IMG/VR virus record: IMGVR_UViG_3300045988_099312
Location: 1-55,517 of that record
DNA from: a virus
Strand: one strand, 5' to 3'
DNA length: 55,517 nucleotides
Numbering within the stretch: position 1 is the stretch's first letter; every line of letters starts with the position of its first letter. Shown piece after piece: positions 1 through 55,517 of the stretch. The position numbers and the translations under genes are program-made. The notes under the pieces are model-generated. The model saw only the letters and a program-made list of their open reading frames with translations. It searched no databases and had not been told where the DNA came from.

Positions 1-283
1 AAGAACGTTTCTCATGGAAAATGTATACGTCTGCTCAATGCGTTAAAACGGCGATTCTAGCGATTTCTGAAAATCCACCATACTCCACCCCATCCGATTA
101 AATTTAGGCGTTTCCGAAATCGAGGAAAACGTATCATGCAAAACTAGCATAGCAAAAACGTTATTTAAGTAAAGAAAATACTTTACGCAAATGGGGAAAT
201 GTGGTATGATATATACATAAGAGAGATAGAGAAAAACAAAGAAATCTCTCGGAAATCAAAGAAAATCGGAGGAAACAAAAATG
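1..283 (+). repeat. Cassette copy A, 3' part (continues from 55306-55400 across the junction): conserved spacer, promoter, leader hairpin, RBS and ATG
   Basis: Near-identical to 36789-37177 and 50523-50911 when aligned by eye. Confidence 0.9.
182..210 (+). promoter_or_regulatory. SigmaA-type promoter of cassette A
   Basis: TTTACG (182-187), 17-nt spacer, extended -10 TGgTATGAT (202-210). Followed by leader hairpin GAGAGAT 221-227 / ATCTCTC 244-250 and RBS GGAGGAAAC. Confidence 0.7.
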
Positions 284-2889: not shown

Positions 2890-2919
2890 CCTACAGCTAA
2901 ACGCTGTAGGATTTTTTTT
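2890..2919 (+). terminator. Rho-independent terminator closing the RNA island
   Basis: 8-bp stem CCTACAGC / GCTGTAGG, loop TAAAC, then a run of 8 T. Confidence 0.75.
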
Positions 2920-28891: not shown

Positions 28892-31189
28892 ATGGCTGAT
28901 GAAACGCAAGTAACAACAGAAGAGCAAAGAAACTCTCCTGGCATTGCTTTTATCACCCATGGGAACTTGAAGCACGACCCGCCGCTCCACGCTTTTATCA
29001 CCCATGGGAACTTGAAGCACGACCCGCCGCTCCACGCTTTTATCACATATGCCAAAGGGGTAGATACTGACGGAGAAGGAGAAATTTCGACTCAACTTCT
29101 TAATTTTTCTGCTTCCGCGAAGAAAGAAAACAACAAAACCACCATTGCTATTTCATGGAATTTGAACGGTTTGCATCATGCAGTGATTCGTATTAAGAAG
29201 GTTCAGGCTGAAGCCGATAACGAAGTGGATTGGTCAGGCGTTGAGGTGGCGGATACGCTCACGATGGGTCAGGGGGTTACGTCTACAGAGTATGATGGAG
29301 CGCAAGAAGGGTACAAATATCAGCTAGAAGGCGTTGGCGTAGATGTATTCGGTGATACGTCCGAAGCGGCAAATACGCCGAAAGAAGAGGTGTTTATAGC
29401 GAAAGCTGTAGAGCCTAATCCCAATCCTAAACCTGAACCTGATCCTAGCCCTGAACAGCCAACGGAGAAACTTTTTGAATTTCACTATGTTCCCGATGAA
29501 GGCGTACTGCCGGGGCTGATTTTTGAGCAGCAGACCGAAGACGTTATCAACGATATCGGGAATTATGCGTATTTTGCACAGAAAACGGCATCGAAAGCGC
29601 TTAAAACTGGGCTTGAAGCAAGCGAAGCGGCGCGAACTGCGTTGAATGCAGCGCAGAACGCACAGTCTACAGCTGACCGTGCTACTGAACTTGGCAATAC
29701 CGGAATTAGCAAGGCTAACGCTGCACAAGAGACCGCAGATAAAGCACTGAAAAAAGCAGAAGCGAATGAAGTCAGTATCGCCGCCAACTCTTCTTCTATC
29801 GCGACACTCCAAAACACAGTCAACGGACAGCAAACACAGCTTGATTGGAATTTAACGAATATCAGCGGATTGAAAAAGCAGGTTGCGGAGAACAAGCAAA
29901 GCATTGAGGAAAACTCCAAAGGAATTAGTCAGTGCATGATGACTATACAAGAAAGTCAAGCATACACTACAACGGATAAGACGGATGCCAATGATTTAAC
30001 CGATTACGGTAGAATCTATCTTCCAAATGCTCTTTTGCATTGTCCTAGCGGAGTTACTTATCCAGTTCTTTTGGATGTCGTTCCGTCTTATTTTGGGGAT
30101 TCGGAAATAGATGATGTAGTGGTTCAACGAGTTGTTGACGCAAACGGAGTTTCGTTTTATCGTCTTGCTACTGAGGAGACAGCAGATGCTACGATAACAT
30201 ACAACTTCGGCGATTGGAAGTCTATTGATACTCGCTATTTGAAACTGACTGGCGGCACCGTAACAGGGCAGACTACCTTCTCGGGCAAGCTTACTGCAAG
30301 CGGAGAGACAAGCGTGCCGACGCCATCAACGGAAAACAACTCAAAGACCATCGCTAATACCGAATTTGTTCATGGCGTGGTAAGTAATTTAGTTAACGGC
30401 GCGCCGAACGCATTAGACACATTGCAAGAGCTTGCAACCGCACTGGGAAACGACCCTAATTTTTCGACTACCGTCTTAAACAAGATAGGCGAGAAAGAAA
30501 GCAAGACAGATGCACAAATAGAGTACAAGAAATTACAGGATGCAATTCCGACGAAGATATCTCAATTGCCGAATGATAGCGGATACCAGAAAACGGCTGA
30601 AATCCCCGTTGCGTCGCAGACGCAGAATGGGTACATGAGTAAGGATGACAAGGTAAAGTTGGATAGATTGACGGGAGATGATACAAGTGTTATAAATTAC
30701 GTCAAGTCCGTTACAGAATCGAACGGTAAGTTAACCGTTACAAAAGGTGGGGGAGATAGCACTATTATCAATTTAATAGACACATTTTACCCCATCGGTA
30801 CTGTGTATATATCTGCTGACAAGACCAAAACAAAAGCGGACTTTCCATTCATGACACATGGCACATGGGAAGAAGTACCTGCTAACCTTTGCTTGCAGAC
30901 AGGAAATGCAAGTGAAGCAGGAACACAGAGAAGTGCAGGATTACCAAATATTACAGGTCAAGTTTCTACTGGTGCTAGAAAAATGGATGAATCTTATGAG
31001 CTGCTAAGTGAAGGAGCATTGTATATCTCTAAATATGGCGTAAATAGGTCTGCTTATAAGGATGGAAGCAATACAAGAGCACATCAGATAGTATCTTTAG
31101 ATGCTTCTCGCTCCAATCAAATATACGGTGCATCCGATACAGTTCAACCCCCTGCATACATAGTAAGAGCTTGGGTGAGGACGGCATAG
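28892..31189 (+). CDS. Long tail fibre (765 aa)
   Basis: His-rich tandem repeat, PNPNPKPEPDP linker, Ala/Gln-rich coiled coil, 'APNALDTLQELATALGNDPNF' and 'QTQNGYMSKDDKVKLD' fibre-repeat motifs, and a collar-like C-terminus. Confidence 0.8.
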   Translation: MADETQVTTEEQRNSPGIAFITHGNLKHDPPLHAFITHGNLKHDPPLHAFITYAKGVDTDGEGEISTQLLNFSASAKKENNKTTIAISWNLNGLHHAVIRIKKVQAEADNEVDWSGVEVADTLTMGQGVTSTEYDGAQEGYKYQLEGVGVDVFGDTSEAANTPKEEVFIAKAVEPNPNPKPEPDPSPEQPTEKLFEFHYVPDEGVLPGLIFEQQTEDVINDIGNYAYFAQKTASKALKTGLEASEAARTALNAAQNAQSTADRATELGNTGISKANAAQETADKALKKAEANEVSIAANSSSIATLQNTVNGQQTQLDWNLTNISGLKKQVAENKQSIEENSKGISQCMMTIQESQAYTTTDKTDANDLTDYGRIYLPNALLHCPSGVTYPVLLDVVPSYFGDSEIDDVVVQRVVDANGVSFYRLATEETADATITYNFGDWKSIDTRYLKLTGGTVTGQTTFSGKLTASGETSVPTPSTENNSKTIANTEFVHGVVSNLVNGAPNALDTLQELATALGNDPNFSTTVLNKIGEKESKTDAQIEYKKLQDAIPTKISQLPNDSGYQKTAEIPVASQTQNGYMSKDDKVKLDRLTGDDTSVINYVKSVTESNGKLTVTKGGGDSTIINLIDTFYPIGTVYISADKTKTKADFPFMTHGTWEEVPANLCLQTGNASEAGTQRSAGLPNITGQVSTGARKMDESYELLSEGALYISKYGVNRSAYKDGSNTRAHQIVSLDASRSNQIYGASDTVQPPAYIVRAWVRTA
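28946..29047 (+). repeat. Exact 45-bp tandem repeat (2 full units plus about 11 nt) inside the fibre gene
   Basis: 28946-28990 equals 28991-29035, encoding AFITHGNLKHDPPLH twice. A third unit starts at 29036. Confidence 0.95.
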
Positions 31190-35371: not shown

Positions 35372-35399
35372 GGGGCTAGGAAACTAGCCCTCTTTTTTT
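35372..35399 (+). terminator. Rho-independent terminator ending the late/lysis operon
   Basis: Stem GGGCTAG / CTAGCCC, loop GAAA, then TCTTTTTTT. Confidence 0.8.
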
Positions 35400-35414
35400 A
35401 TTGCCGCAATAAAA

Positions 35415-35781
35415 CCCACGGAAATTCCCCGGAAGTTCCGTTGGATGTTCCTACGGAAAATCCATGGAAATTCCAGCGGAATTGTATAAATGAATCAATT
35501 TAAAGATTATATTTATTCGATATATTCAATTCCGCGGGAAAATCCATGGAAATTCCACACTATTTCCGCAGGAAAATCCGTGGAAATTCCGCACGTAAAA
35601 AGTTCCTGATTTTTGGGTTTCACAAAACTAAAAAAATGTATGAAAAAATATTGTGTAATAAATATTCTTATTATTGAATAGAACCTCGCGAATTTTGATA
35701 ATAAGATATATAAATATTCAATTCCGCAGGAAAATCCATGGAAAATCGTTGGAAATTCCGTGGAACTTCCGCAGGAATGCG
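35415..35781. repeat. Three clusters of about 11-bp phased iterons (core GGAAAnTCC, often the palindrome GGAAATTCC) flanking AT-rich DNA
   Basis: Clusters at 35417-35483 (6 units), 35528-35595 (about 6 units) and 35719-35781 (about 6 units). A 123-bp AT-rich spacer lies at 35596-35718. Confidence 0.85.
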
Positions 35782-35915: not shown

Positions 35916-36296
35916 ATGAAAACTAAACTAAAAATACTGATTTCCATTGCTTCGCTTCTTTTGGTAACTACAAATGCGTCTGCTTTTCAGATGGAAAAGA
36001 ACGGGCATGTTGTTCCGCTTTTTAAAGGCTATGAAATTAGTTTCGAATATTTTAAGAAGGTGATGAATGTAAAATGTCCGCATGACGGAGGACTTTCTTC
36101 TTTCTCTGTCGCTGGAAAACAGGTATCTCTAATCCGAACAACGGATACATGTCCTCACGTACCAGTTGTAACGTCGCCTGTGCTTACAATTTATCAAGAT
36201 GATATACCTTTCTTAATTGCCGATGACTATTGTGCATGGAAAAAGGGTGCAAAGAACTCTGCATTTCCCGAAATCTGGGAGCGATATGCTAAATAA
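35916..36296 (+). CDS. Secreted small protein (126 aa), moron-like
   Basis: RBS GAGGGGGA. Signal peptide 'MKTKLKILISIASLLLVTTNASA'. Has its own terminator. Confidence 0.75.
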   Translation: MKTKLKILISIASLLLVTTNASAFQMEKNGHVVPLFKGYEISFEYFKKVMNVKCPHDGGLSSFSVAGKQVSLIRTTDTCPHVPVVTSPVLTIYQDDIPFLIADDYCAWKKGAKNSAFPEIWERYAK

Positions 36297-36737: not shown

Positions 36738-36788
36738 CCAAACTAATGAACTGAATTTTTCCTTTTTATACATATCCCATAAAGTTAT

Positions 36789-37177
36789 CATATAGCGATT
36801 TTTGGCATAAAGACCGAAAATCGCTATATTTGCATTTATTTGGTTTTACAGCGTTTCCCGAAGTTCAGCATATAACCAATCAAAAATCACGCAAGAACGT
36901 TTCTCATGGAAAATGTATACGCCTGTTCAATGCATTAAAATGGCGATTCTAGCGATTCCTGAAAATCCACTATACTCCACCCCATCCGATTAAATTTAGG
37001 CGTTTCCGAAACTGAGAAAAATGTATCATGCAAAACTAGCATAGCAAAATCGCCATTTAAGTAAAGAAAATACTTTACGTAAATGGGAAAACGTGGTATG
37101 ATATATACATAAGAGAGATACAGAGAAAAACAAAGAAATCTCTCGGAAATGAAAGAAAATCGGAGGAAACAAAAATG
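36789..37177 (+). repeat. Cassette copy B (terminator, conserved spacer, promoter, leader, RBS, ATG)
   Basis: Aligns along its whole length with 50523-50911 and with 55306-55400 plus 1-283. Terminator stem TAGCGATTTTTGG / CCGAAAATCGCTA at 36793-36826. Confidence 0.9.
37074..37102 (+). promoter_or_regulatory. SigmaA-type promoter of cassette B
   Basis: TTTACG, 17-nt spacer, TGgTATGAT. Confidence 0.7.
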
Positions 37178-37513
37178 ACTAAAGCAGAAATGAATGTAGA
37201 GTTAGCTCGTGTGTTAGCATCAAAAACCAACCGCCCAAGTCGAAGAGACGAAAGCGTCAGTAGGATTCTTGAAAGCCTACCAAAGGGAGCAAAAATTCTT
37301 TTCACGGAAGCCCGTGATATTTATGAATGGGATAGAATTAAAGATGATATTGGGGAGTATGAAGAAAATGAACTGAATTTTCTCTCCAGCGTTATGACAA
37401 AAGTGTATGGAACTATTTGGATGACTTATGATGAAAACATCAATAAAAAGGTTCTGATTGATATGAGCTTTTCCTCCGAACCTGGTGATGCATTATCCAT
37501 TGTGATTCTGTAA
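37175..37513 (+). CDS. Hypothetical protein (112 aa), single gene driven by cassette B
   Basis: RBS GGAGGAAAC. Convergent with the integrase gene. Confidence 0.75.
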   Translation: MTKAEMNVELARVLASKTNRPSRRDESVSRILESLPKGAKILFTEARDIYEWDRIKDDIGEYEENELNFLSSVMTKVYGTIWMTYDENINKKVLIDMSFSSEPGDALSIVIL

Positions 37514-37515
37514 AA

Positions 37516-37548
37516 TGAAAAAGAGGGGGCTACGCCCCTTCTTTTTTT
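37516..37548. terminator. Bidirectional rho-independent terminator between convergent genes
   Basis: A-run, stem GAGGGGGC / GCCCCTTC, T-run. Confidence 0.75.
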
Positions 37549-39235
37549 ACCATATGAACGTCTGTTTCAGACCGTTTCTAAGAGTGAGTGACTTAATTCG
37601 CCCGTCTTTGACAATGATAGAATCGATTATGCTGACAAAGAACTCATGCAGGACGGAAGGGCTTATTGTTTTCGCCAAGCGTTCATAACTCACAAAATTC
37701 CGATCTCCCAACTTCTTCGCTATAATGAACTCGCTTGCACGTCTAATAAAGTCTTCGTCTGAAATGGAAGTGCTGACGCTTGCGGTTTTAAAGGATGATA
37801 TTTCTTCATTGACTTCTTCCAGCGCGTCCGTGATGCACTTCTTTTGAACTACAAATTCTGTATCTGAAATTGCATCTTCTGAATACAAATAGATTTTTGT
37901 CAGCCGTTCCAAGGCACGCTCCTGCTTTCTCTTTTTCGCTTTTAATGCCGCCAACTTATTTTTCGTTGTTGATCCATCCCTTGCCACTATATTGTCACCG
38001 TAGATTTTTTGAATCCCCGTCAATGCCTTGATTGCATCATAGATCCTTTGCAGGTCTACTGGATTGATTGACTTGATGTAACTAAAAACGAAGCCGCGAA
38101 GAAGGATTTTTGAAAGCTCTGCCGTTGAATGAATATTGGTGCGTTGCTGCTGGGCATGAAGGAGGTTCACGATGTAGTTGATGATAAAATCGCCCAGTGT
38201 TAAATCTGTGACTGATTTGTTTTTGCACCTTTCGTCTGATGTTCTCCTTGTTGGACAAAGGTATCGTCCAAACTTCCATCCTTTTTTGCTCGTTACTGTT
38301 GATGTGTATCTTCTCCCACATTCCGAACAATAGATAAGACCGCCAAAGACATGCACATTGTTTTTTGTGATGTAAATATTATGAGCCGTTATTAGTCGTC
38401 TGTTTTCTTTTAGTTGAGCAATTACTTTTTCTTTTTGCTCTTCTGATATGATTCGCGGATGATGATTTTCTACTGTTATCCATTCGGATTCTGCTTTTGG
38501 TCTTTGCCTGTCGCCTTCCTTGCGAGTGTTATAACGATATGATCCGCAGTACCAAACGTTCGTCAGAATGATTCGCAACGAGTTTGGCGACCAGTCATTT
38601 TCGTATCTTGATTTGTAACCTAGTGAATTCAGTTTTTTGGCGGTTGATACTAAAGAGTTCGTTTGTTCGTAAGTGTCATGAATCAAATGGACAATGGCAG
38701 CTTCCTCTTCGTTGATTGAGAATGTCATTGATTTTTCGTCATAATCATAACCGTATGGGATTCGTCCGCCATTCCACTGCCCGCTTGCGGCTCGTGAAAT
38801 CATGGTCGCAGTTACTCGCTCAGATGTCATGTTTCTCTCAAGTTCGGCAAAGACGAGAATAATTTTTAACATCGCTTCGCCCATCGCGGTAGAGGTGTCG
38901 AATTGCTCGTTCTTTGAAACAAACGTAACGCCTAAAGACTTTAGCTCCTCGTACATTCCTGCAAAGTCAAGTAGATTGCGACTGATACGGTCAATTTTCC
39001 AAACCAGTACATGAGTAAAAAAACCACTTCGTATTAGGGACATCATTTCCTTAAATTTTGGGCGTTCCATGTTTTTTCCAGAGTATCCAGCGTCTTCGAA
39101 TATTGAATAGTTTTCCGTATGAAGCATTAACTTCGCATAAGAAATTAAATCTTTACGTTGCATTGGCAAAGAATCCTTGTCTATCTGATGTGTCGTTGAA
39201 ACTCGAATATAGATGGCTACCCTTGGATCAGTCAT
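37547..39235 (-). CDS. int: Large serine recombinase (integrase), 562 aa
   Basis: N-terminal resolvase catalytic domain 'VAIYIRVSTTHQ', a recombinase domain, and a Cys-rich zinc-ribbon segment 'CSECGRRY...CPTRR...C'. Confidence 0.9.
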   Translation of the reverse strand: MTDPRVAIYIRVSTTHQIDKDSLPMQRKDLISYAKLMLHTENYSIFEDAGYSGKNMERPKFKEMMSLIRSGFFTHVLVWKIDRISRNLLDFAGMYEELKSLGVTFVSKNEQFDTSTAMGEAMLKIILVFAELERNMTSERVTATMISRAASGQWNGGRIPYGYDYDEKSMTFSINEEEAAIVHLIHDTYEQTNSLVSTAKKLNSLGYKSRYENDWSPNSLRIILTNVWYCGSYRYNTRKEGDRQRPKAESEWITVENHHPRIISEEQKEKVIAQLKENRRLITAHNIYITKNNVHVFGGLIYCSECGRRYTSTVTSKKGWKFGRYLCPTRRTSDERCKNKSVTDLTLGDFIINYIVNLLHAQQQRTNIHSTAELSKILLRGFVFSYIKSINPVDLQRIYDAIKALTGIQKIYGDNIVARDGSTTKNKLAALKAKKRKQERALERLTKIYLYSEDAISDTEFVVQKKCITDALEEVNEEISSFKTASVSTSISDEDFIRRASEFIIAKKLGDRNFVSYERLAKTISPSVLHEFFVSIIDSIIVKDGRIKSLTLRNGLKQTFIW

Positions 39236-39265: not shown

Positions 39266-39625
39266 TTATGATATGTACTGCTTGCTCGATTTATCGATTG
39301 ACTGGGCAATTTTGAAATCGATGAATGCTAAAACTTCCTGCTGAACCTCTACCGGGAGCTTGTGAAACTTCTTAATCAGAATTTTGTCTCGACCTGTTGC
39401 GAATGGAATTGGATAATTTTTCGACTCCATGCCCGTTACTAAGTAATCGAGTGAGACGTTAAAATATTTTGCTATTTCAGTTAGAGTATTTACCTTTGGT
39501 GTACCTCTTCCCTTTTTCCAATCTGAAATACTTGTGTGTGAAATTGCAAGGTCAGAAGTCAGCTTCAATGCTGTTATATTTCGCTCTGACATTAAATCTA
39601 GCACTCGCTCAATGATTGGGGACAT
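39266..39625 (-). CDS. XRE-family CI-like repressor (119 aa)
   Basis: ATG at 39625 preceded by GGAGGT. HTH 'ITALKLTSDLAISHTSISDWKKGRGTPKVNTLTEIAKYFNVSLDYL'. Lies 30 bp upstream of int on the same strand. Confidence 0.8.
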   Translation of the reverse strand: MSPIIERVLDLMSERNITALKLTSDLAISHTSISDWKKGRGTPKVNTLTEIAKYFNVSLDYLVTGMESKNYPIPFATGRDKILIKKFHKLPVEVQQEVLAFIDFKIAQSIDKSSKQYIS

Positions 39626-39813
39626 ATACGATACCTCCACTTTGGAGTTAGCCATAATATACTTGCAAATTATGGTAAACTCCGCTATAATAAGAATATA
39701 CATAAAAGCCATAATAATTACGAAAACACCGAAAATAAGCACAAATGTTACCGTAAATATTATAGCACAAATGTATAAGAGAGTTGAGGAATCGTAGGAA
39801 AGGAGATGATTTT
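39626..39813. promoter_or_regulatory. Divergent lysis/lysogeny switch region
   Basis: The + strand carries TTGCAA (39663-39668), 17-nt spacer, TATAAT (39686-39691). The - strand carries an extended -10 TGcTATAAT (complement of 39759-39767). Direct repeat GCACAAATGT at 39739-39748 and 39765-39774. Confidence 0.6.
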
Positions 39814-40017
39814 ATGGGAAATTCTGAATTGACATGGAGTCAAAGTGCTCGTATTGCCATGATTAAGAAGGGGATTACAACTGGAGAACTCGCCGAAATG
39901 GTTAAGCGTTCTCGACCGTATGTATCTAACATCATTAACGGAAGAGTGTTTTCTCCTGCAACGAACAAGCTGATCTCAGATATTTTGGATATCGAATATA
40001 AGGGCGGTGGCTATTGA
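39814..40017 (+). CDS. Cro-like HTH regulator (67 aa)
   Basis: RBS AAGGAG. 'ITTGELAEMVKRSRPYVSNIINGR' HTH. Divergent from the repressor gene. Confidence 0.75.
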   Translation: MGNSELTWSQSARIAMIKKGITTGELAEMVKRSRPYVSNIINGRVFSPATNKLISDILDIEYKGGGY

Positions 40018-40175
40018 TGAAAGAGAGGATAGTCGAATACTTAAAAGAAGAATTTGGAATTGAGACAGAGGAAGACTTCGAAAAGGTTGCTTCTGAATTT
40101 CATGGTGTTGACATATCAATTCTTGGAGGTGATTGTAGTGCTTCTGAATCGAATCAGATGGAGAAATGTGGCTAA
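40017..40175 (+). CDS. Possible small acidic protein (52 aa)
   Basis: ATGA overlap with the cro-like stop. Below the ORF-track size cutoff. Overlaps the next gene's GTG start by 38 nt. Confidence 0.3.
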   Translation: MKERIVEYLKEEFGIETEEDFEKVASEFHGVDISILGGDCSASESNQMEKCG

Positions 40176-40764
40176 ACTGCTTATTGTTGTTACTGGTGCC
40201 GCCGTATGCATTAGCTATGCGTGTGGGAAGACTTATGACTGTTATAGTCAAACCTCTTCGAAAGAGATGATTGTTGCCTCGCACGTTCAGGAAGAAGGAT
40301 TTAAAGAATATGAAATCCCCGAAGCATTTGCTTCCGAAGGTGGGAAAATGGATCTTCATACCCAAAGGCGTACATGGTACGCTTGCCATGCATACCACGT
40401 TTCCTATCCTCTTGTCCTTGCTGTTATTGAAGCAGAAAGTGGCTATAAGGCAGAGGCTAGGAATAATCTAGCAGGAGCGATTGGATACATGCAGATTGTT
40501 CCGGGCTGGCATCAAGCGCGCATTTCTCGAATGAACGCAGACATCGAAGAAATTCCGATTGACAACATTCTAGTTGGTATAGATTATATTGCCGAATTGC
40601 AGAAACATTGCGACGATCCCAATTATCTGTTGATGGCATACAACATGGGGCTTTCTGAAGCTACACGCCAATGGCTTTTAGGAGTACACTCAACCGAATA
40701 TAGCCGCTATGTCATTAGACGCTCTAAGGAAATTACAAAGGAGCTTGATGGGGCGTACATATAA
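40138..40764 (+). CDS. Membrane-anchored lytic transglycosylase (SLT domain), 208 aa
   Basis: GTG after GGAGG. N-terminal TM 'VAKLLIVVTGAAVCISYA'. The 'VIEAESGYK...AIGYMQIVP...MAYNMG' pattern matches the SLT catalytic signature. Confidence 0.7.
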   Translation: MLLNRIRWRNVAKLLIVVTGAAVCISYACGKTYDCYSQTSSKEMIVASHVQEEGFKEYEIPEAFASEGGKMDLHTQRRTWYACHAYHVSYPLVLAVIEAESGYKAEARNNLAGAIGYMQIVPGWHQARISRMNADIEEIPIDNILVGIDYIAELQKHCDDPNYLLMAYNMGLSEATRQWLLGVHSTEYSRYVIRRSKEITKELDGAYI

Positions 40765-40836
40765 TTTTTTTTGAAACGAAGTTTGGAAACAGCCATAAAT
40801 ACAAATGGTGTTATGGTTTATTCCGCTGGAGGAGAT

Positions 40837-41067
40837 ATGTGTGACATTTGTTTATCTAATCCACATTTGCCGCAGTGTCCATATGCGCCCGAGCCAAAGG
40901 GGGTTTATGAATGCTCCGTTTGTGGTGAACCAATTCGTGACGGGGACAAGTACGTTGACGGGCTTGGTGGATGTATTTGTGCCGATTGTATCGACGAAAT
41001 GAGTGTCAGTGAGTTCATGGAGCTTACTGGTGAGGATTTCAAGATAGCGAGGGAAGAGAATGAATAA
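40837..41067 (+). CDS. Cys-rich zinc-ribbon-like small protein (76 aa; may start upstream at 40771)
   Basis: ATG after GGAGGAG. Cys pairs CDIC...C, CSVCG and CICADC. Confidence 0.6.
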   Translation: MCDICLSNPHLPQCPYAPEPKGVYECSVCGEPIRDGDKYVDGLGGCICADCIDEMSVSEFMELTGEDFKIAREENE

Positions 41068-41923
41068 CGTACAAGTAGCGAACACTGCAGTTAATACTTT
41101 AAATGCTGTTAAAAACTCAATGACTTTGCCCGAAGTGAGATCTCGGTTTGAACAGGCTTTGGGGGATAGAGCGTCACAGTTTATGCTGTCGATTATCAAT
41201 GCTGTTTCTAATAATTCATCATTAGCACGATGCAATCCAAACTCCATCATGGCTGCTGCTATGGTGGCTGCAAGTATCGATTTGCCAGTTGATCCAAACC
41301 TTGGATTTTCCGCGTTAGTTCCGTACAAGGGGATATGCCAATTTCAAATGATGTATAAGGGGTTTGTACAACTCGCTATACGGACTGGCGCATACGAGCG
41401 AATGGGTTCTGCGGAAGTGTATGCAGATGAGTTGAAAAGGTACAATCCGATAACTGGAGAGTGCTTATTTGTTGATGACTTCTCACAATGTAGTGACCGA
41501 AAAAACAAGAATCAAAACAAAGTAATTGGATACTATGCATGGTTCAGATTGAAATCCGGGTTTACAAAAGAGCTGTATATGTCAAAAGATGAAGTCATTG
41601 CTCATGCGAAAAAGTATTCGAGTGCTTATAGGGCGGATCTTAATACAGGAAGCTATTCTAGCCAATGGACCGTCAATTTTGACACTATGGCGAAGAAGAC
41701 TGTGCTGAAACTTTTGCTATCTCGATGGGGTGTATTGTCTATTAAACTTCAGAAAGCGATTGAGGAAGACCAAAAAACGTTTAACGAAAATGGAACCTCT
41801 TCTTACGGGGATAATCAACCCGATTCCGATTGTTCTCGCATTCGGGTTCAAGAGCCGTGCTTCTTGAAATCAAAGGCTATAAGTGCGTCTAAGAAAGAGA
41901 ATGCAAGAGGGAACCGAAAATAG
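41060..41923 (+). CDS. recT: RecT-family single-strand annealing protein (287 aa)
   Basis: 'SIINAVSNNSSLARCNPNSIMAAAMVAASIDLPVDPNLGFSALVPYKG...MYKGFVQLAIRTG' matches the RecT pattern. Confidence 0.8.
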   Translation: MNNVQVANTAVNTLNAVKNSMTLPEVRSRFEQALGDRASQFMLSIINAVSNNSSLARCNPNSIMAAAMVAASIDLPVDPNLGFSALVPYKGICQFQMMYKGFVQLAIRTGAYERMGSAEVYADELKRYNPITGECLFVDDFSQCSDRKNKNQNKVIGYYAWFRLKSGFTKELYMSKDEVIAHAKKYSSAYRADLNTGSYSSQWTVNFDTMAKKTVLKLLLSRWGVLSIKLQKAIEEDQKTFNENGTSSYGDNQPDSDCSRIRVQEPCFLKSKAISASKKENARGNRK

Positions 41924-41948
41924 TTGGTTGAACTGGAGGAATTTTACC

Positions 41949-42743
41949 ATGATGCTTACAGAGGAAAACTATTATAGTACCGCAGCCAATAAAGAATATA
42001 TGAGCGTATCGCAATATAAAGATTTTGTTGGGGTGCCTGGTCATGTTGGTTGCGAGTTCTGCGCGATGCAGAAAATGAATGGTAATTGGTCTGATGGCAT
42101 GAATAATGCAATGATGATTGGATCTTACGTTGACCACTATTATGAAGGAACTCTCGAACCGTTCAAAGCGGAGCATCCTGAAATTTTTAAGAAGGACGGT
42201 ACGCTAAAGGCAGAGTTCGTGAAAGCTGAATCGGTTATTAACCGAATCAACAAAGATGAATATTTCCTGAAATATCTTGCAGGAGATAAACAGGCTATTA
42301 TGACGGCAAACCTCTTTGGAACGCCTTGGAAAATTAAGATGGATAGCTATTTTGAAGGGGCGGCTATTGTTGACTTAAAGGTAATGCAGTCAATTCGTGA
42401 TTTGTACTACGCCAAAGATTATGGACGAATGGATTTCATTCGATATTGGGGATACGACATTCAGGGGGCTGTTTATCAAGCTGTCGTAGAGAAGAATACA
42501 GGAAAGAAGCTCCCGTTTTATATTGCTGCGGCATCGAAGGAGTACGAGCCTGACATACAAATCATACAGGTAACACAGAATTATCTTGATGCGGCACTTG
42601 CTGGTGTTGAAGCGAACATAGATCGAGTTCTTGCGGTTAAGCGAGGCAACATAGAACCTCAACCGTGCAGTGTTTGTCCGTGCTGTAGGCATTATAAGAG
42701 GCTCACTTTTCCTATCGGCATCGACGACATTATCGGTTCGTAG
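41949..42743 (+). CDS. PD-(D/E)XK exonuclease (Cas4/RecB-like) partner of RecT
   Basis: RBS GGAGGA. 'AAIVDLKV' D-x-K motif. C-terminal Cys cluster 'CSVCPCCRHY'. Confidence 0.65.
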   Translation: MMLTEENYYSTAANKEYMSVSQYKDFVGVPGHVGCEFCAMQKMNGNWSDGMNNAMMIGSYVDHYYEGTLEPFKAEHPEIFKKDGTLKAEFVKAESVINRINKDEYFLKYLAGDKQAIMTANLFGTPWKIKMDSYFEGAAIVDLKVMQSIRDLYYAKDYGRMDFIRYWGYDIQGAVYQAVVEKNTGKKLPFYIAAASKEYEPDIQIIQVTQNYLDAALAGVEANIDRVLAVKRGNIEPQPCSVCPCCRHYKRLTFPIGIDDIIGS

Positions 42744-42751
42744 GAGGAAAG

Positions 42752-43474
42752 ATGGCATGGATAGCTATACATGAAACAATTCTAACCGGAAAGCTCCGCA
42801 TGTTGTCCAAAGAAGCTGGAGTCAGTCAAGATGAAGCACTGGGAATACTTGTCAGGCTTTGGTTGTGGGCAATTAACAATGCAGATGAATTTGGGAATTT
42901 AACTGGTGCTGATCTGGATGACATTGCTGACGTGCTTACCGTTGGATTGTCAAAAGGAATAGACCCGGTGAATATTGTTGATGCACTTATTGCTACAAAC
43001 TGGATTGAAAATAGTAGTGAAAAGCTCAAGATCCACAACTGGGATATTTGGCAAGAACAATGGTATAAAGTTTTGTCTCGGCGCAAAAGAGATAGAGAAC
43101 GGAAGGCATCGCAAAAGACTTGTGTTAGCACTGAAGTAAAGAGTGTTGACGTAACGCAAAGGGAAAAGAAGGGAAGAATCGAATATCCTGAAAAATTCGA
43201 AGAGTTTTGGGAAAAGTATCCACGCAAAGTTGGTAAGGGAGAGGCGTACAAGTGTTATAAGGCTCGTATCGCAGACGGTTGGAATCCCGACGTGCTTATT
43301 GAAGCTGCTGAAACGTATGCTGAGCAAGTGAAAAAAATGCACACTGAGGCGATGTATGTTAAGCATCCAAAAACGTTTTTATCTGCGACGACTCCGTTTG
43401 CTGATTACATTAGGAAGAAGGAAGTACAGTCCGATGTTACTGACGAGAGTGATCCATTTGGGGATTGGAGATGA
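42752..43474 (+). CDS. Replisome organiser / DnaD-like replication initiation protein (240 aa)
   Basis: N-terminal phage replisome-organiser pattern 'LGILVRLWLWAINNAD'. C-terminal 'FEEFWEKYPRKVGKGEAYKCY' motif. Confidence 0.6.
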   Translation: MAWIAIHETILTGKLRMLSKEAGVSQDEALGILVRLWLWAINNADEFGNLTGADLDDIADVLTVGLSKGIDPVNIVDALIATNWIENSSEKLKIHNWDIWQEQWYKVLSRRKRDRERKASQKTCVSTEVKSVDVTQREKKGRIEYPEKFEEFWEKYPRKVGKGEAYKCYKARIADGWNPDVLIEAAETYAEQVKKMHTEAMYVKHPKTFLSATTPFADYIRKKEVQSDVTDESDPFGDWR

Positions 43475-44262
43475 TTGCAATGGAACTGAAAAGATGCCCC
43501 GTGTGTGGAGGCTTTCTTGAACGGGTCGTAAAATTTCCTGTTATGGATGGAACCAAAATCATGGTTGAAAAGGTTGTTCCGGTTATGTGTCGGTGTCAGC
43601 TAGAGAAGGAAGCTAAAGCTGAACAAAAGGCAAAATACGAACGGGAAATGCGTGTTGTCGGTCGGCTAAAAAAAGAGTCGTTGCTAGATGCTAGACTTGC
43701 CAATGCTAGCCTTCGGCAATACAAACGTAATGGTGGAAACGATTTTGGGTATGTTGTTGCCGAAAGGTATATTTCAAAGTTTTCCGAACTGAAAAAGAGG
43801 GGGCAGGGGCTTCTCTTTTGGGGCGATGTCGGCACCGGAAAAAGCTATACGGCTGCTGCCATTGCTAATTCGTTGCTTGAACGGCGCATCCCTGTCATTA
43901 TGACCTCTTTGATTAAGATACTATCTCAGGCAGGAAGTGTAGGTGTAAGTGAGGACACTATCAGGAATCTTAACCGACCCGATCTGCTCATCTTAGACGA
44001 TTTTGGCGCAGAGAGAAACACTGATTATGCCATTGAGAATGTGTACAACATTATTGACAGCCGCTATCGAAGCGGAAAGCCACTCATCCTCACAACAAAC
44101 CTCACGCTTGAAGAAATGAAACGAACAGACGACAGACGGTATCAGCGTATTTACGATCGTATTTTCTCTATGTGCTTTCCTGTCAGATTTACAGGAGAGA
44201 GCTTCAGAAAGGTATCGGCAGTCCAGAGGTTTGATGAGATGAAAGAGATAATGAAAGGGTGA
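43465..44262 (+). CDS. DnaC/IstB-like AAA+ helicase loader (265 aa)
   Basis: Walker A 'GDVGTGKSYTAAA', Walker B 'LLILDDFGAE', N-terminal CPVCGG zinc ribbon. Confidence 0.8.
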   Translation: MEMIAMELKRCPVCGGFLERVVKFPVMDGTKIMVEKVVPVMCRCQLEKEAKAEQKAKYEREMRVVGRLKKESLLDARLANASLRQYKRNGGNDFGYVVAERYISKFSELKKRGQGLLFWGDVGTGKSYTAAAIANSLLERRIPVIMTSLIKILSQAGSVGVSEDTIRNLNRPDLLILDDFGAERNTDYAIENVYNIIDSRYRSGKPLILTTNLTLEEMKRTDDRRYQRIYDRIFSMCFPVRFTGESFRKVSAVQRFDEMKEIMKG

Positions 44263-44267
44263 TTGAA

Positions 44268-44471
44268 ATGTATGACAAGGTAAGAGATGACACATGTGAT
44301 GACGAAATTCGTATTCCGAGAGGCTTATTCTATGCTATTGTTCATGGGTTAAAGAAAGGAGCAAAAAATAGCGAAAAAATAAACCCTGAATTTGGTCGCG
44401 GACTGACCTTTGCTACAGATGTATTGAAGGGATTTGTTGAAGAACATGGAGAATTTGTATGTCAGAAATAA
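44268..44471 (+). CDS. Hypothetical protein (67 aa)
   Basis: ORF track 44259-44471. ATG 44268 after AAAGGGTGA. Confidence 0.55.
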   Translation: MYDKVRDDTCDDEIRIPRGLFYAIVHGLKKGAKNSEKINPEFGRGLTFATDVLKGFVEEHGEFVCQK

Positions 44472-44887
44472 ATTCGTTTTTTATCGCTGGCGAAGTACAA
44501 GCTAAGCAAAGACCTAAATTTAATGGGCGCTTTGCTTATACTCCGAAAGAAACAGTGTCGTATGAAAATCTAGTCAAGCTCCAGTATCAAGCGCAATGCG
44601 GAAACTATAGATACCCTGATGACGTTCCGCTTATTGTTGCAATCTTCGCGCATATTGAACCACCGCAATCAGCGTCCAATATCAAAAAAACTCGGATGCT
44701 AAATCAAGCGGAATATCCACTCAAAAAACCTGATGTGGATAATGTCGCAAAGATCATACTGGATGCACTAAACGGCATTGCGTATAGAGATGACAAGCAG
44801 GTAGTAACATTGATTGTTAAAAAGTCATATGCCGGAGAAAGCGGTGTGGGCGTAACTATTTCAGAGGTGGAGGTAAAAAATGAGTGA
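44459..44887 (+). CDS. rusA: RusA-family Holliday junction resolvase (142 aa)
   Basis: 'KKPDVDNVAKIILDALNGIAYRDDKQV' is the canonical RusA motif. Confidence 0.8.
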   Translation: MSEINSFFIAGEVQAKQRPKFNGRFAYTPKETVSYENLVKLQYQAQCGNYRYPDDVPLIVAIFAHIEPPQSASNIKKTRMLNQAEYPLKKPDVDNVAKIILDALNGIAYRDDKQVVTLIVKKSYAGESGVGVTISEVEVKNE

Positions 44888-45326
44888 GTTCAAGATTGGC
44901 ACCAGAGTGGAATGTAAAGCATTTGGCAAAGGAACAGTAATTGGATATGACGAGACTGATACGTCATATTACATCAAAGTACGATTTGACAACAGAAGAA
45001 CCGTTAACTGCTCAAAAGATGGGTATATTGAATTTACTAAAAATTGTCCACCGTACACGGTCAAGGCTATAACCGAAGAATGTAAAACGGATAAAATCAA
45101 CCCAAACTATTACAAAGGGGACATCGAATGTATCGAAGCTATCAAGGCTAGTATGACATGCGAAGAATATAGGGGGTTTTTGAAAGGACAGGTCATGAAA
45201 TACACATGGCGATACAGAGAGAAGGGCGGTGTTGTCGATTTACAAAAGGCAGGGTGGTATCTCGACAAGCTCGTAAAAGAGCAGTCTCTTGACGAAGTAC
45301 GGCATATGCCCGTGAATGAAAAATGA
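44880..45326 (+). CDS. DUF3310-like protein (148 aa)
   Basis: 'INPNYYKGDIECIEAIKA...GFLKGQVMKYTWRYREKGG..DLQKAGWYLDKL' matches the DUF3310 pattern. Confidence 0.65.
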   Translation: MSEFKIGTRVECKAFGKGTVIGYDETDTSYYIKVRFDNRRTVNCSKDGYIEFTKNCPPYTVKAITEECKTDKINPNYYKGDIECIEAIKASMTCEEYRGFLKGQVMKYTWRYREKGGVVDLQKAGWYLDKLVKEQSLDEVRHMPVNEK

Positions 45327-45874
45327 AGTGGAATAAAGTAAACCGCTATTGTTTCACTCCTGCTCGACAGTATGGATATACAGCAGTTTCGTTAGAGTTG
45401 ATTACGCCCAACGACAAGATGGATGAACTAAAGAATCTACTCGAATCCGACAAGTGCATAGTGGAAGCTAGAAAGTTAAAAATCAAGCGATCGCTATCGG
45501 CAAATGCTTATTGCTGGGTTGTGTGTGATGCATTGGCAAAAGTGCTACATTCGACAAAAGAGGACGTATATCGGACGGCAATACGAAATGTTGGCGTATG
45601 GGACACGATAGCGGTCAAGCCGTTTGCTTACGACTCTTTCCGCAGGAAATGGGAAAGCCACGGAATCGGGTGGTGCGTTGACATAGAAAGCAGACATCGG
45701 GACTATTGGGAGATCCGAGTTTATACAGGTTCGAGCTTATACACGAAAGAGCAAATGTCCCGACTGCTTGAGTGGTTAGTTGACGAAGCGGAACGGGAAC
45801 ACTTAGATGTAAAAACGCCGGAAGAAAGGAAGAAGCTCATTGATGAGTGGGAAAGAGAACGTTATGAAGATTGA
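45323..45874 (+). CDS. Hypothetical protein (183 aa), NinB/HNHc_6-like at pattern level
   Basis: 'KRSLSANAYCWVVCDALAKVL' resembles motifs of phage NinB/putative-HNHc proteins. This is weak evidence. Confidence 0.35.
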   Translation: MKWNKVNRYCFTPARQYGYTAVSLELITPNDKMDELKNLLESDKCIVEARKLKIKRSLSANAYCWVVCDALAKVLHSTKEDVYRTAIRNVGVWDTIAVKPFAYDSFRRKWESHGIGWCVDIESRHRDYWEIRVYTGSSLYTKEQMSRLLEWLVDEAEREHLDVKTPEERKKLIDEWERERYED

Positions 45875-46244
45875 GAAGGAAGAACGAATTAGGCTTACTC
45901 CTGCCGGATATAAAGCAATTTGCGCCATGGTTGACAGAAGAGCAAGCCGTGACGGTTATCCTCGGTGTGAGTGGTGCGGCAAATCTATCGGGAAAATGGA
46001 TCACCACCACATTCGCTATCGTTCGGAGTACGGCAGCGACACTCTTGAGAACCTAATCCTTCTGTGTCGAGATTGTCATGACGTGTATGCACACGGAAAG
46101 AAAAAGCACCTCTACCAAAAGGATTTTATTGACTACAGAATGAATACTGAACCCATCAAGACGTGGAATATCGTTCATCAGAATGAAGCGCAAGCTATCT
46201 ATAAGAGGTACGCTAAACGAGGGTGTAAAGATGGAAAAGAATGA
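45864..46244 (+). CDS. HNH endonuclease (126 aa)
   Basis: 'CEWCGK...HHHIRYRSEYGSDTLENLILLCRDCHDVYAH' HNH motif. Confidence 0.8.
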   Translation: MKIEKEERIRLTPAGYKAICAMVDRRASRDGYPRCEWCGKSIGKMDHHHIRYRSEYGSDTLENLILLCRDCHDVYAHGKKKHLYQKDFIDYRMNTEPIKTWNIVHQNEAQAIYKRYAKRGCKDGKE

Positions 46245-46518
46245 AATTGAGTTTGTGAATGGCAGAAGAGTGTTACCTGCTGGGTTTGATGTAGAGAAAG
46301 CAGAAAGAGCCATTGATTTTTTTCTCAGTGCGTCTACATCCAGAACGTACATTACATTCAGCACATTGGCGGGGCGATACTTGATGCTCTATGTAACTTT
46401 GTACAGTGGAAGCACAGCGAGATGGCGCTTGTGTGAGTTGCTTGGCGTTGATCCTGGAGATAGGTCAACTTTAAAAAACTGGTGTAAAAGAAGAGCTGTT
46501 GCGCGCGATGAAATGTAA
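46231..46518 (+). CDS. Hypothetical protein (95 aa)
   Basis: Internal ATG of ORF 46183-46518 that overlaps the HNH gene's stop. Confidence 0.55.
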   Translation: MEKNEIEFVNGRRVLPAGFDVEKAERAIDFFLSASTSRTYITFSTLAGRYLMLYVTLYSGSTARWRLCELLGVDPGDRSTLKNWCKRRAVARDEM

Positions 46519-46533
46519 AAGGAGGAAACTTAA

Positions 46534-46755
46534 ATGAATATCATCATCGGAAGCGATATGTATTTGTGCCACCCGAAAGTTATTAAGTTTGCAAAAGTTG
46601 GACTGTTTAGACAGACCGTCCTCATGGTGGATGGAAATGTCGTCAAGAAATACAAAAACGAAGAGGAATTAAAAAAGGACAAGGATCTACTTTCGTTCAC
46701 TATCGGATTGTCTGAACCTGTTTGCGTTCTCAAAGGAGAAAATGAAAATGAATAA
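46534..46755 (+). CDS. Hypothetical protein (73 aa)
   Basis: RBS AAGGAGGAAAC. ORF track entry. Confidence 0.7.
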   Translation: MNIIIGSDMYLCHPKVIKFAKVGLFRQTVLMVDGNVVKKYKNEEELKKDKDLLSFTIGLSEPVCVLKGENENE

Positions 46756-47212
46756 TGTAAAAAATGTTGGCGAAGGCAGATTCTTCAAGGCCGTAAAAGG
46801 TTGCCCGTTTGTTGTCCGACTGCCTGAACGCAGCACAAAATATTCTGCTGGGTATGATTTCTTCTGCCCGTATCCAGTTGTAATCGCGCCGGGACAGACG
46901 ATCAAAATCAAAACATGGGTAAAAGCTCGCTTCCCCCGAGGTGAGTTTCTGATGATTTGCGATCGCTCGTCGTTTGGAATTAAGAAGCATCTTACAATTC
47001 CAAATGGGGTAGGCATTATTGATAGTGATTATTACGGAAATGAAAATAACGATGGCAATATCATTGCTGCGCTGTATAACTTCGGGCAAGAACCAGTACA
47101 GATTAACACTGGAGACAAGGTGTGCCAGGGTATCTTTATTTCGTTCAAGGTCACAGATGACGATACAGCAACTGGTGAACGTACTGGCGGAGTAGGAAGT
47201 ACCGGAAAATGA
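46742..47212 (+). CDS. dut: dUTP pyrophosphatase (156 aa)
   Basis: 'AGYDF', 'RSSFG', 'GVGIIDSDYYGN' and a C-terminal 'GERTGGVGSTGK' are trimeric dUTPase motifs. Confidence 0.85.
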   Translation: MKMNNVKNVGEGRFFKAVKGCPFVVRLPERSTKYSAGYDFFCPYPVVIAPGQTIKIKTWVKARFPRGEFLMICDRSSFGIKKHLTIPNGVGIIDSDYYGNENNDGNIIAALYNFGQEPVQINTGDKVCQGIFISFKVTDDDTATGERTGGVGSTGK

Positions 47213-47302
47213 AAGAAAAAAATTTGGAGAAGTATCAAAAGTGTATTTATGGGTTCTGTGTTTTTTCATGGCTTGCGATGATGCAGGATTGAGAGGTTGA
47301 AG

Positions 47303-47737
47303 ATGAAACTTAGAGAATTAGTGAACAAAATTGATAACGATATAGTTTTATGGATAGTTAGAGCTCCGGACACTAACGTTCTGTTCAAAAGAAAGCACCC
47401 TTTTGACGTTATTCCAGAGAATGTGCTTTGCATGGAAGTCGGAACGTTTTTCCCTAGTTACAACAGAATGTATATAGAAGTAAAAAGAAATGCCGGAAAT
47501 GGTAGCTTTAGAGAACTGCTTAACCATCTCAATAATTACGATTGTATCGACGTGTACGTCGTTAACCGTGACGGCGCGAAAGAAAAGGTATATTCTGACC
47601 AAGCTGTACTTCGCACCAATGAAGAATATGACAATTATCTAGTAAAAAGAATTAGCCCTCATGAGTCTGAATGGGGCGATAAAATCGAAATAGAGATAGA
47701 GCCGCGCGAAGAGGAAGATACGCAGGAGGGAAAATAA
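47303..47737 (+). CDS. Hypothetical protein, member 1 of the MKL-ELL small-protein family (144 aa)
   Basis: RBS GAGAGG. N-terminal 'MKLRELVNKI', C-terminal 'IEIEIE'. Confidence 0.65.
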   Translation: MKLRELVNKIDNDIVLWIVRAPDTNVLFKRKHPFDVIPENVLCMEVGTFFPSYNRMYIEVKRNAGNGSFRELLNHLNNYDCIDVYVVNRDGAKEKVYSDQAVLRTNEEYDNYLVKRISPHESEWGDKIEIEIEPREEEDTQEGK

Positions 47738-48010: not shown

Positions 48011-48051
48011 TATGCCAAGAAGTTGAAAGAATTAGGGGAATGTGAAAGTGA

Positions 48052-48213: not shown

Positions 48214-48227
48214 GAAAGGAGAACACA

Positions 48228-48506: not shown

Positions 48507-48518
48507 GGAGGAACAAAA

Positions 48519-49099: not shown

Positions 49100-49173
49100 T
49101 AACGATGCAATAAAGACGATAAGTATCTTGCTTAGAATAAATGAAATATATAAAGAAAGGAGGAAACAATAAA

Positions 49174-49410: not shown

Positions 49411-49434
49411 AAATAGTTAATGTGGAGGCTTAAA

Positions 49435-49917: not shown

Positions 49918-49933
49918 GTAATGGAGGAAACCG

Positions 49934-50503: not shown

Positions 50504-50522
50504 ATCAGTGACATAAAGTTAT

Positions 50523-50911
50523 TACATAGCGATTTTTGGAAGAAAAGCCGAAAATCGCTATATTTGCGTTTATTTGGCTTTTCTAGCGTTTCCCGAGGTT
50601 CAGCATATAACCAATCAAAAATAACGCAAGAACGTTTCTCATGGAAAATGTATACGTCTGCTCAATGCATTAAAATGGCGATTTTAGCGATTTTTGAAAA
50701 TCCCCTATACACCACCACATCCGATGAAATTTAGGCGTTTCCGAAATCAAGGAAAACGTATCATGCAAAATAGCATAGCAAAATCGCCATTTAAGTAAAG
50801 AAAATACTTTACACAAATGAGGAAATGTGGTATGATATATACATAAGAGAGATACAGAGAAAAACAAAGAAATCTCTCGGAAATGAAAGAAAATCGGAGG
50901 AAACAAAAATG
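50523..50911 (+). repeat. Cassette copy C (terminator, conserved spacer, promoter, leader, RBS, ATG)
   Basis: Aligns with copies A and B. Terminator stem at 50527-50560. Confidence 0.9.
50808..50836 (+). promoter_or_regulatory. SigmaA-type promoter of cassette C
   Basis: TTTACA, 17-nt spacer, TGgTATGAT. Confidence 0.7.
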
Positions 50912-52128: not shown

Positions 52129-52130
52129 AA

Positions 52131-55204: not shown

Positions 55205-55227
55205 GAGAACACATACTCCTTGCTACA

Positions 55228-55265
55228 AGACTTGCTGGATCATCAGCAGGTCTTTTTGTTTTATG
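55228..55265 (+). terminator. Rho-independent terminator
   Basis: 10-bp stem AGACTTGCTG / CAGCAGGTCT with one G-U pair, then TTTTGTTTT. Confidence 0.75.
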
Positions 55266-55305
55266 ATGAGGATAACGATCAGTGATATAGATGCATTACA
55301 TAGCG

Positions 55306-55517
55306 ATTTTTGGCATAAAGACCGAAAATCGCTATATTTGCATTTATTTGGTTTTACAGCGTTTCCCGATGTTCAGCATATAACCAATCAAAAATCATGC
55401 AAGAACGTTTCTCATGGAAAATGTATACGTCTGCTCAATGCGTTAAAACGGCGATTCTAGCGATTTCTGAAAATCCACCATACTCCACCCCATCCGATTA
55501 AATTTAGGCGTTTCCGA
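55306..55517 (+). repeat. Cassette copy A, 5' part (terminator hairpin 55301-55334 plus the start of the conserved spacer); 55401-55517 duplicates 1-117
   Basis: Aligns with 36789-36990 and 50523-50730. Confidence 0.9.

Follow-up and report, generated by a model that had tools for sequence, protein, structure and literature searches.

The window analysed here is the whole 55,517-nt stretch of the IMG/VR virus record IMGVR_UViG_3300045988_099312. It belongs to a temperate phage that encodes a large serine recombinase and carries a CI/Cro switch; the candidate repressor is the CI/Xre-type HTH protein. A cassette is repeated in the window at 36778-37177 (copy A), at 50504-50911 (copy B), and at 55225-55517 continued at 1-283 (the wrap-around copy, made of the left part of a copy C' and the right part of a copy L). 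All cassette copies are direct repeats on the + strand. The pairwise identity of the three window copies was 90.8-92.8% over an alignment of about 400 nt, with BLAST E values of at most 1e-160. Homology starts 10-25 nt 5' of a hairpin and, as the initial annotation had stated, stops at or just past an ATG. Copies A, B, L, and C' share one order of parts: the hairpin and a T-rich tail, a spacer of about 250 nt, a promoter, a leader, an RBS, and the ATG. The features of the window are as follows.

1..283, + strand: right part of copy L, with the spacer end, the palindrome (163-192), the -35 (182-187), the extended -10 (202-210), the RBS (268-276), and the ATG (281)
281-568: first gene headed by copy L, with a 46-aa gene and six tRNAs (1057-2731) in the same block
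2890..2910, + strand: terminator 3' of the tRNA block, where transcription from copy L probably ends
36778..37177, + strand: complete cassette copy A, from about 12 nt 5' of the hairpin to the ATG of a lone 112-aa gene
36790..36829, + strand: terminator-like hairpin of copy A with a T-rich tail (ATATAGCGATTTTTGG-N8-CCGAAAATCGCTATAT), within which also lie two GCGATT motifs in inverted orientation and TTGGCA-17-TATATT, a weak match to a promoter
36830..37052, + strand: distal spacer of copy A, non-coding, lineage-specific, and missing from relatives
36942-36957 and 37048-37054: direct pair in the copy A spacer, GGCGATTCTAGCGATT and AATCGCC
37053..37086, no strand assigned: palindrome over the -35, a candidate operator (CCATTTAAGTAAAG / CTTTACGTAAATGG, 14-nt arms, 6-nt spacer)
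37074..37102, + strand: predicted sigma-70-type promoter, near-consensus (-35 TTTACG, 17-nt spacer, extended -10 TGGTATGAT)
37103..37177, + strand: leader of copy A, with ATATACATAA (37103-37112), a weak hairpin (37113-37144), the RBS GGAGGAAAC (37162-37170), and the ATG (37175)
37175-37513: lone 112-aa gene headed by copy A
37513..37545, no strand assigned: bidirectional GC-rich terminator that closes the copy A unit and separates the lone gene from the integrase gene convergent with it
39266-39627 and 39815-40017: CI and Cro, phage HTH proteins
41060-41923, + strand: phage RecT
41883-42743, + strand: PDDEXK exonuclease
49934-50503: 189-aa gene
50504..50911, + strand: complete cassette copy B, directly 3' of the stop of the 189-aa gene, ending at the ATG of a DUF7698 gene and heading twelve small genes
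50526-50561, 50808-50813, 50828-50836, and 50896-50904: hairpin, -35, extended -10, and RBS of copy B
50909-51346: DUF7698 gene
55225..55517, + strand: left part of copy C', with an extra upstream terminator (55227-55254), the hairpin (55298-55337), and the start of the spacer

The hairpin ATAGCGATTTTTGG-N8-CCGAAAATCGCTAT is stable in each copy (-20.6 kcal/mol, z = -5.3). Its stem has 14-16 pairs, five of them G-C, and its tail (ATATTTGCATTTATTTGG) is T-rich and interrupted. The single G-U pair in the stem suits an RNA of the + strand. Copies L and C' carry a more canonical terminator 45 nt upstream of the cassette hairpin. The spacer contains no credible ORF, in agreement with the initial annotation. 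An indel in copy B shifts every frame of its approximately 250 nt, and all changes between A and C in the only ATG-ORF (6/6) are non-synonymous. A protein-coding spacer was rejected on these two grounds. In copy C', the two arms of the -35 palindrome match without a fault.

At the sequence level, TTTAC(G/A)-17-TGGTATGAT, the RBS GGAGGAAAC, and the ATG are present in every copy, which agrees with the near-consensus extended -10 promoter described before. The number of promoter-like sites in the region was not above the shuffle expectation. A leader hairpin had also been listed as part of the cassette. This hairpin is weak (-7.3 kcal/mol, z = -1.9, with an equally good fold in 10 of 200 shuffles), broken in the natural copy on contig L039, and missing in relatives, and it was rejected as a conserved element. 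The first codons ATGAC(T/A)AAAGCAGAAATGAA (MTKAEM), assigned earlier to "A and B", are common to the copy at 36789 and the wrap-around copy, and the copy at 50523 begins with MENTFEK.

The transcription units are delimited by the terminators at 2890-2910, 37513-37545, and 55227-55254. Copy L had been placed before a tRNA/modification/late block. It does head the tRNA unit, but because the terminator at 2890-2910 follows the tRNAs, copy L need not drive the modification and late genes. The cassettes head accessory blocks, and the structural genes need not depend on them. The first genes after the cassettes gave no Pfam or PHROG function. Behind B and C', the blocks consist of consecutive small genes without annotation, and the first genes behind L and C' are distant paralogues. 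The 189-aa protein next to copy B had been called ArpU-like; this label has no Pfam support and was rejected.

The ends of the window overlap by 117 nt (55401..55517 is identical to 1-117 on the + strand). The longest identical run between L and C' is 121 nt, and in every other pair of copies it is at most 85 nt. Positions 1-119 of the window correspond to positions 3-121 of this run, and the last 119 nt of the window correspond to its positions 1-119. An assembler working at k=119 emits exactly such ends for a path between two branching nodes. Since the window ends are the last and first 119-mers of the run shared by L and C', the window is a k=119 contig bounded by a repeat. The terminal overlap means that both alternative flanks were in the sample, and it does not imply a circle. 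A sister contig carries the name k119_9646.

An 86.4-kb ENA scaffold was 100% identical to window positions 39934-55517 and 1-10568. This scaffold places L at one side of the window sequence and C' at the other, so the natural element has four long copies and one short copy. On the side of gene 281-568, there is a full copy L, preceded by the host genes ruvCAB, spoIID, and queA. The left part of copy L in the natural prophage thus adjoins attL and host queA, not gene 54722-55204. On the other side, gene 54722-55204 is followed at its 3' end by copy C', which heads eight small genes, then by a short cassette (copy D), which heads a split 68-aa gene and RadC, and then by host tgt. Here, copy C' has another promoter-proximal part than in the window and leads into a 104-aa gene. 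With the canonical terminator just upstream of each included, L and C' are direct repeats of 466 nt with 95.7% identity.

In naive strains of the same Dialister-like host, whose QueA shares 77% identity with the D. pneumosintes protein, the gap between queA and tgt is 54 nt. Comparison of attB, attL, and attR with these naive queA-tgt sites gave the core GATGC(C/T)ATGTTTTT, located in the last codons of queA, and a prophage length of about 60.2 kb. The attP core was not found in the window sequence. The junction of queA, cassette L, and gene 281 was present in three independent assemblies. No contig was found that joins gene 54722-55204 via a cassette to gene 281-568, and the sole read-through contig enters the block of the 104-aa gene.

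These results show that the wrap-around "third copy" is a composite of two genomic copies, L and C'. The three near-identical repeats reported at first are real as repeats, but the third is a chimera. Three copies in a 55-kb circular phage is the picture given by the assembly; the window is a repeat-bounded contig and no closed genome. About 4 kb is absent from the window; it includes attP, one more cassette, the eight small genes, RadC, and the gene of an HTH protein encoded upstream of copy D. The cassette repeat caused the false circular closure by the assembler and so hid these 4 kb, including attP. Reading the window as a complete genome would give a wrong size, a wrong attP search, and a wrong lifestyle call. 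A real 55.4-kb deletion circle with exactly the window sequence may coexist. Integration by homologous recombination into a resident remnant was considered and rejected, because it needs an integrase phage without attP and the relatives carry attP directly upstream of the L-position cassette.

Relatives in IMG/VR were compared with the window (189-aa protein 78%, RecT 71%, and lone-gene homologue 86-89% identical). They have no hairpin and no spacer, and keep only the promoter-leader-RBS unit of about 100 nt. Each of their contigs contains at least 2-4 copies of this unit, with TTTACA-17-TAATAT and ATATATACAACAAAGGAAATAGTTAGTAAATAACAGGAGGAAAC..ATG. Every copy stands behind its own, different terminator, and the homology again ends at the ATG. 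The copies occupy positions equivalent to A, B, and L, and the L-position copy directly follows the attP core. The columns shared by the window and the relatives are CTTTAC (-35), the -10, the following ATATATACA, and the stretch GGAGGAAAC..ATG. The promoter kept at the same positions in related phages indicates that it is the conserved core. On this comparison, the promoter-proximal 150-185 nt or so is best described as the conserved core of the cassette, and the hairpin and the 250-nt distal spacer as lineage-specific additions. The shared regulatory unit proposed in the initial annotation therefore finds support insofar as several units are headed by one and the same promoter, leader, and RBS, which recur at equivalent positions in relatives; conservation extends to this part but not to the hairpin and spacer.

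Within the window lineage, copy-to-copy identity was 88-96% in the distal part and 91-96% in the proximal part, and A, B, L, and C' differ mutually at 4-10% of positions. The two lineages differ in cassette sequence, and the copies are homogenised within each. Natural L-position copies on contigs L039 and L043 carry B-type or C'-type patches. Gene conversion is the best explanation of how the copies are kept alike, to judge from these sequence patterns. Copy D has only the proximal part (86-91% identity) and its own terminator. Its upstream 235 nt had 38% identity to the spacer in global alignment, with a local score of z ~4.6. The decay of copy D indicates that the distal part can degrade while the proximal part persists.

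Searches for the cassette elsewhere gave few matches. No GenBank phage matched it in blastn (distant mode). Scans of IMG/VR with three cassette patterns returned one close relative only, whose contig ends inside copy A. Exact 25-mers of the cassette were absent from the genome and metagenome contig collections searched. Among 135 host and related-phage loci (1.3 Mb), the hairpin-spacer segment was not found outside this lineage. A search with the integrase among 185k genomes found only relatives with at most 33% identity, so no prophage context was available from there. The same search in IMG/VR found one 56% relative, which has no cassettes.

Contig L031, assembled at k=119 from another sample, runs from the 189-aa gene through a B::C' cassette into the 104-aa block. 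Its cassette joins the left part of B to the right part of C'. All informative sites upstream were B-type (39/39) and the next 11 were C'-type; three sites at the very 3' end scored as B-type again, which was read as an effect of the alignment end. The crossover lies inside a 64-nt identical run of promoter and leader, and the 4.8-kb block between B and C' is removed. The 64-nt run is shorter than k=119, and L031 is thus not a k-mer chimera. It comes from a short-read metagenome assembly, and carry-over from a smaller k in an iterative assembler may have played a part.

The DUF7698 gene provides a second case. Its product has 82% amino acid identity between the lineages, and the gene is led by a cassette in both. 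In the window it follows the 189-aa gene, whereas in contig L004 it is found 5.4 kb upstream; apart from this, the genomes are collinear. In addition, the direct repeats C' and L flank the 4-kb block that starts with the 104-aa gene and ends with RadC. The sequence comparison thus points to the cassettes as recombination points, with the module differences between relatives bounded by them. The idea of a substrate for recombination or module shuffling, raised at first from the repeats, is borne out by the L031 crossover, the relocation of DUF7698, and the mosaic copies.

We believe that the locus is best explained as a composite terminator/promoter cassette that heads accessory blocks and serves as a recombination site in a temperate prophage, about 60 kb long, of a Dialister-like host. 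From the sequence evidence, we give this reading a probability of roughly 0.7. The hairpin would close the upstream unit by termination. The near-consensus promoter of the host sigma-70 type, together with the common leader and RBS, would fire to open the next unit. As direct repeats, the cassettes would be sites of homologous recombination at which gene blocks are deleted, moved, or exchanged, and the phage RecT and exonuclease probably assist recombination between them. One repressor would silence all copies in the lysogen, for which the palindrome over the -35 is the best candidate site, and a protein may also bind the GCGATT motifs of the spacer. The near-consensus promoter of copy L lies at the prophage edge beside queA and must be silent in the lysogen, from which we infer repression. 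Five units with one promoter, leader, and RBS would offer a handle on how a prophage silences strong sigma-70 promoters. The function of the 250-nt spacer is left unexplained by this composite-cassette model.

A link between the cassettes and the CI/Cro switch was also considered. The 10-mer ATATACATAA just past the -10 has four occurrences in the genome, and all four are at cassette promoters and the CI/Cro switch. The 9-mer ATAAGAGAG also links the cassette promoters to this switch in the window. In the related lineage, no 8-mer was common to the switch and the cassette, and the -35 palindrome, the GCGATT motifs, and ATATACATAA were not conserved. A shared CI operator via ATATACATAA or ATAAGAGAG is therefore offered only as a lead.

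The hairpin palindrome and the spacer could mainly be a multi-site DNA-binding platform, through which one regulator switches all promoters, as MrpR does with SPBRE. We hold this view tentatively, as a possibility that falls well short of even odds, and it is compatible with the composite cassette. Fourteen of the 19 RGCGATTYY sites in 55.4 kb lie inside the three cassettes, which make up about 2% of the sequence, with 4-5 sites per copy in both orientations. As the cassettes are mutual duplicates, however, the motif counts of one copy are not independent of those of another. Copy D adds two further RGCGATT sites within its decayed spacer, against about 0.06 expected. The hairpin arms form 13-nt inverted repeats with centres 21 bp apart, and a palindrome with 14-nt arms spans the -35 in all long copies and in D. 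A precedent exists in SPBRE, where one repressor site is found at about ten prophage promoters (PMC10516654). On the other side, the related lineage keeps the same promoter without the GCGATT motifs and the palindrome, no motif is convincingly common with the CI/Cro switch, and the G-U pair in the hairpin favours a role as + strand RNA. No candidate binding protein was identified.

A bolder version regards the long cassette as a device for gene capture and co-regulation, and we consider it unlikely. A phage protein recruited by the hairpin and the GCGATT array would silence all accessory operons in the lysogen and also direct RecT-type recombination to the cassettes. If this were true, the cassette-led blocks, even the attP-bearing block between C' and L, could be gained, lost, and swapped as units in an integron-like manner, although no integron integrase takes part. 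A phage that had lost the C'-L block would then be an attP-less, non-integrating form, whose sequence is exactly that of the window.

Alternatively, the spacer may encode a structured RNA, either a small RNA or a cis leader (for example, for processive antitermination), made from the hairpin-internal site or from the minus strand. An RNA had been suggested in the initial annotation, and we now regard it as very unlikely. The site TTGGCA-17-TATATT, a 10/12 match, lies inside the hairpin of A and C', but it is degraded in L (TTGGGC) and missing in D. No promoter-like site was found in the cassette on the minus strand. Compared with shuffled sequence, the entire cassette gave a more stable fold (z = -4.5, + strand; z = -3.5, - strand), but most of this score comes from the terminator-like hairpin. 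One covarying pair on the + strand is AU in two copies, GC in two, and GU in one; it is the only compensatory pair among 56 predicted on the + strand, against 0 of 71 on the - strand, and several pairs are broken. The spacer had no Rfam match at the gathering score or at E values up to 5. It is also missing in relatives and decayed in D.

Still less probable is a small non-autonomous mobile element, consisting of the hairpin and the spacer, inserted upstream of existing promoters. The left boundary is fairly sharp, with the homology beginning shortly before the hairpin, and the relatives have the promoters without the hairpin-spacer segment. However, no terminal inverted repeats or target duplications were present at the cassette boundaries, and the right boundary is the start codon. 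No copies of the segment were found outside this phage lineage in GenBank phages, IMG/VR, the 135 loci, or the contig collections, and copy D resembles an old full-length cassette with a decayed distal part. The last alternative, an assembly artefact that copied one intergenic region to several places, would account for the third window copy, which is indeed an assembler-made join, and can otherwise be dismissed: A, B, L, and C' show the mutual differences given above, each is flanked by unique sequence on both sides, copy A is 100% identical in the independent contigs L044 and L045, and the copies recur in independent assemblies of different samples (IMG/VR L001, ENA scaffold_134, L031, L039, L040, and L045).

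Three known systems are comparable with the composite cassette. In Cluster K mycobacteriophages, the start-associated sequences SAS and extended SAS are conserved directly 5' of many start codons in one orientation (Pope et al. 2011, PMC3203893). About half of them have an upstream imperfect 17-bp inverted repeat, they stand at equivalent genes across phages, and their function is unknown, with a role in translation initiation suspected (PMC3203893). The cassette is similar in being a repeated conserved sequence that abuts start codons and is kept at equivalent genes of related phages. It differs in length, as the SAS is short and the cassette is about ten times longer, with a full promoter and terminator.

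About ten prophage promoters of SPbeta carry the repeated element SPBRE, to which the master repressor MrpR binds (Kohm et al. 2023, PMC10516654). It lets one repressor silence many units in the lysogen, with genes mostly of unknown function (PMC10516654). The same one-repressor logic is proposed for the cassettes by analogy. SPBRE is a 15-bp motif, whereas the cassette has 390 nt and includes promoter, leader, and RBS, and no MrpR-like protein was identified in the cassette phage.

By analogy, the best reading of the cassettes is that they resemble the PeSL (promoter-early stem-loop) cassettes of T4-type phages, here in a temperate phage. In a PeSL, the interval from a stop to the next ATG holds a terminator of the stem-loop type, an early promoter for sigma-70, and an SD (Arbiol et al. 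2010, PMC2839356; Comeau et al. 2014, PMC4122927). PeSLs are repeated, adjoin ORFans, and mediate indels and mini-circles by homologous recombination (PMC2839356, PMC4122927). Both elements have a stem-loop of the terminator kind (in the cassette a putative one), an AT-rich stretch, a sigma-70-type promoter sequence, and a Shine-Dalgarno sequence in the same order. Both occur as multiple direct copies in one orientation before small genes without assigned function. Breakpoints of insertions, deletions, and replacements fall within the elements, and the crossover lies between the -10 and the ATG in both. Thus, at the sequence level, the cassettes agree with PeSLs in unit order, several copies per genome in one orientation, variable neighbour genes, and breakpoints inside the elements.

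The two are not homologous. PeSL stems are GGGG...CCCC, and the cassette stem is AT-rich (TAGCGATTTTTGG). PeSLs belong to lytic T4-type myoviruses, whereas the cassettes belong to a temperate phage with a serine recombinase and a Negativicutes host. The cassette has 390-466 nt against about 100 nt, owing to the 250-nt spacer that PeSLs lack, and it is present in 5 copies against dozens. With the sequence features shared and the homology and phage type not, the cassette would work like a PeSL without being one by descent. Cassette shuffling was previously described in lytic T4-type phages, and the present locus is clearly analogous, here in a temperate phage whose host is a gut bacterium of the Negativicutes. 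The natural recombinants and the signs of concerted evolution suggest that the mechanism is general.

The prophage was inserted in the last codons of queA, and the reading frame was restored, with LR* becoming LK*. The region of integration was found at two of the other loci compared, L034 and L029:

L034:9480-9560 and L029:19850-19960, attP and integration region, absent from the window

The core of the attP region, GGGGATGCCATGTTTTT, is flanked by the dyad arms TTCATTCA...TGAATGAA. The sole integrase gene (37547-39235) encodes a large serine recombinase. It is located in the middle of the prophage, where it adjoins CI, approximately 20 kb away from the attP region. A 163-nt palindromic insertion was observed in the queA-tgt spacer of one naive host strain, which carries no prophage at this site (L048:9030-9200). 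This insertion, with the direct repeat TTAAGGAAACGCTGA on either side, looks like a small MITE-type element.

The tail gene of 765 aa (28892-31189) contains a perfect 45-nt tandem duplication at 28946-29035. The sister contig k119_9646 is shorter than the window by exactly 45 nt, and the offset arises somewhere in 10568-31547; thus, the copy number of the repeat is probably polymorphic. Four genes were located ahead of the terminase:

3541-8545, four-gene cluster, putative DNA modification

Their products are an ATP-grasp enzyme, a TET-associated-glycosyltransferase-like protein, a PLP-dependent decarboxylase and a UDP-galactopyranose mutase, and the cluster is probably a DNA hypermodification module.

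Five copies of an approximately 34-nt iteron with the core TTCCGCGGGAAAATCCATGGAAATTC were present at 35394-35747. The array is placed in a 550-nt gap without genes, between the lysis region and the gene at 35916-36296, and could be an origin of replication, a partition site or the target of a regulator. Within the tRNA block, two 41-nt repeats of 95% identity (2421-2461 and 2506-2546) resemble tRNA 3' halves with CCACCA ends; neither ARAGORN nor Rfam made a call on this pair.

The 189-aa protein encoded directly upstream of cassette copy B (49934-50503) was described as ArpU-like in the initial annotation; it matched no Pfam family. Its sole match was phrog_1558, of unknown function. A further gene lies just upstream of the short cassette copy D:

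L029:18093-18512, HTH gene (product of 123-139 aa) in the block that the window lacks

This gene has the consensus promoter TTGACT-17-TGnTATAAT, and its product may be an extra regulator. The gene downstream of copy D (L029:18876-19077) is split into two 34-aa ORFs. Because the relative L012 has a single 68-aa protein at this position, the split gene is probably a pseudogene.
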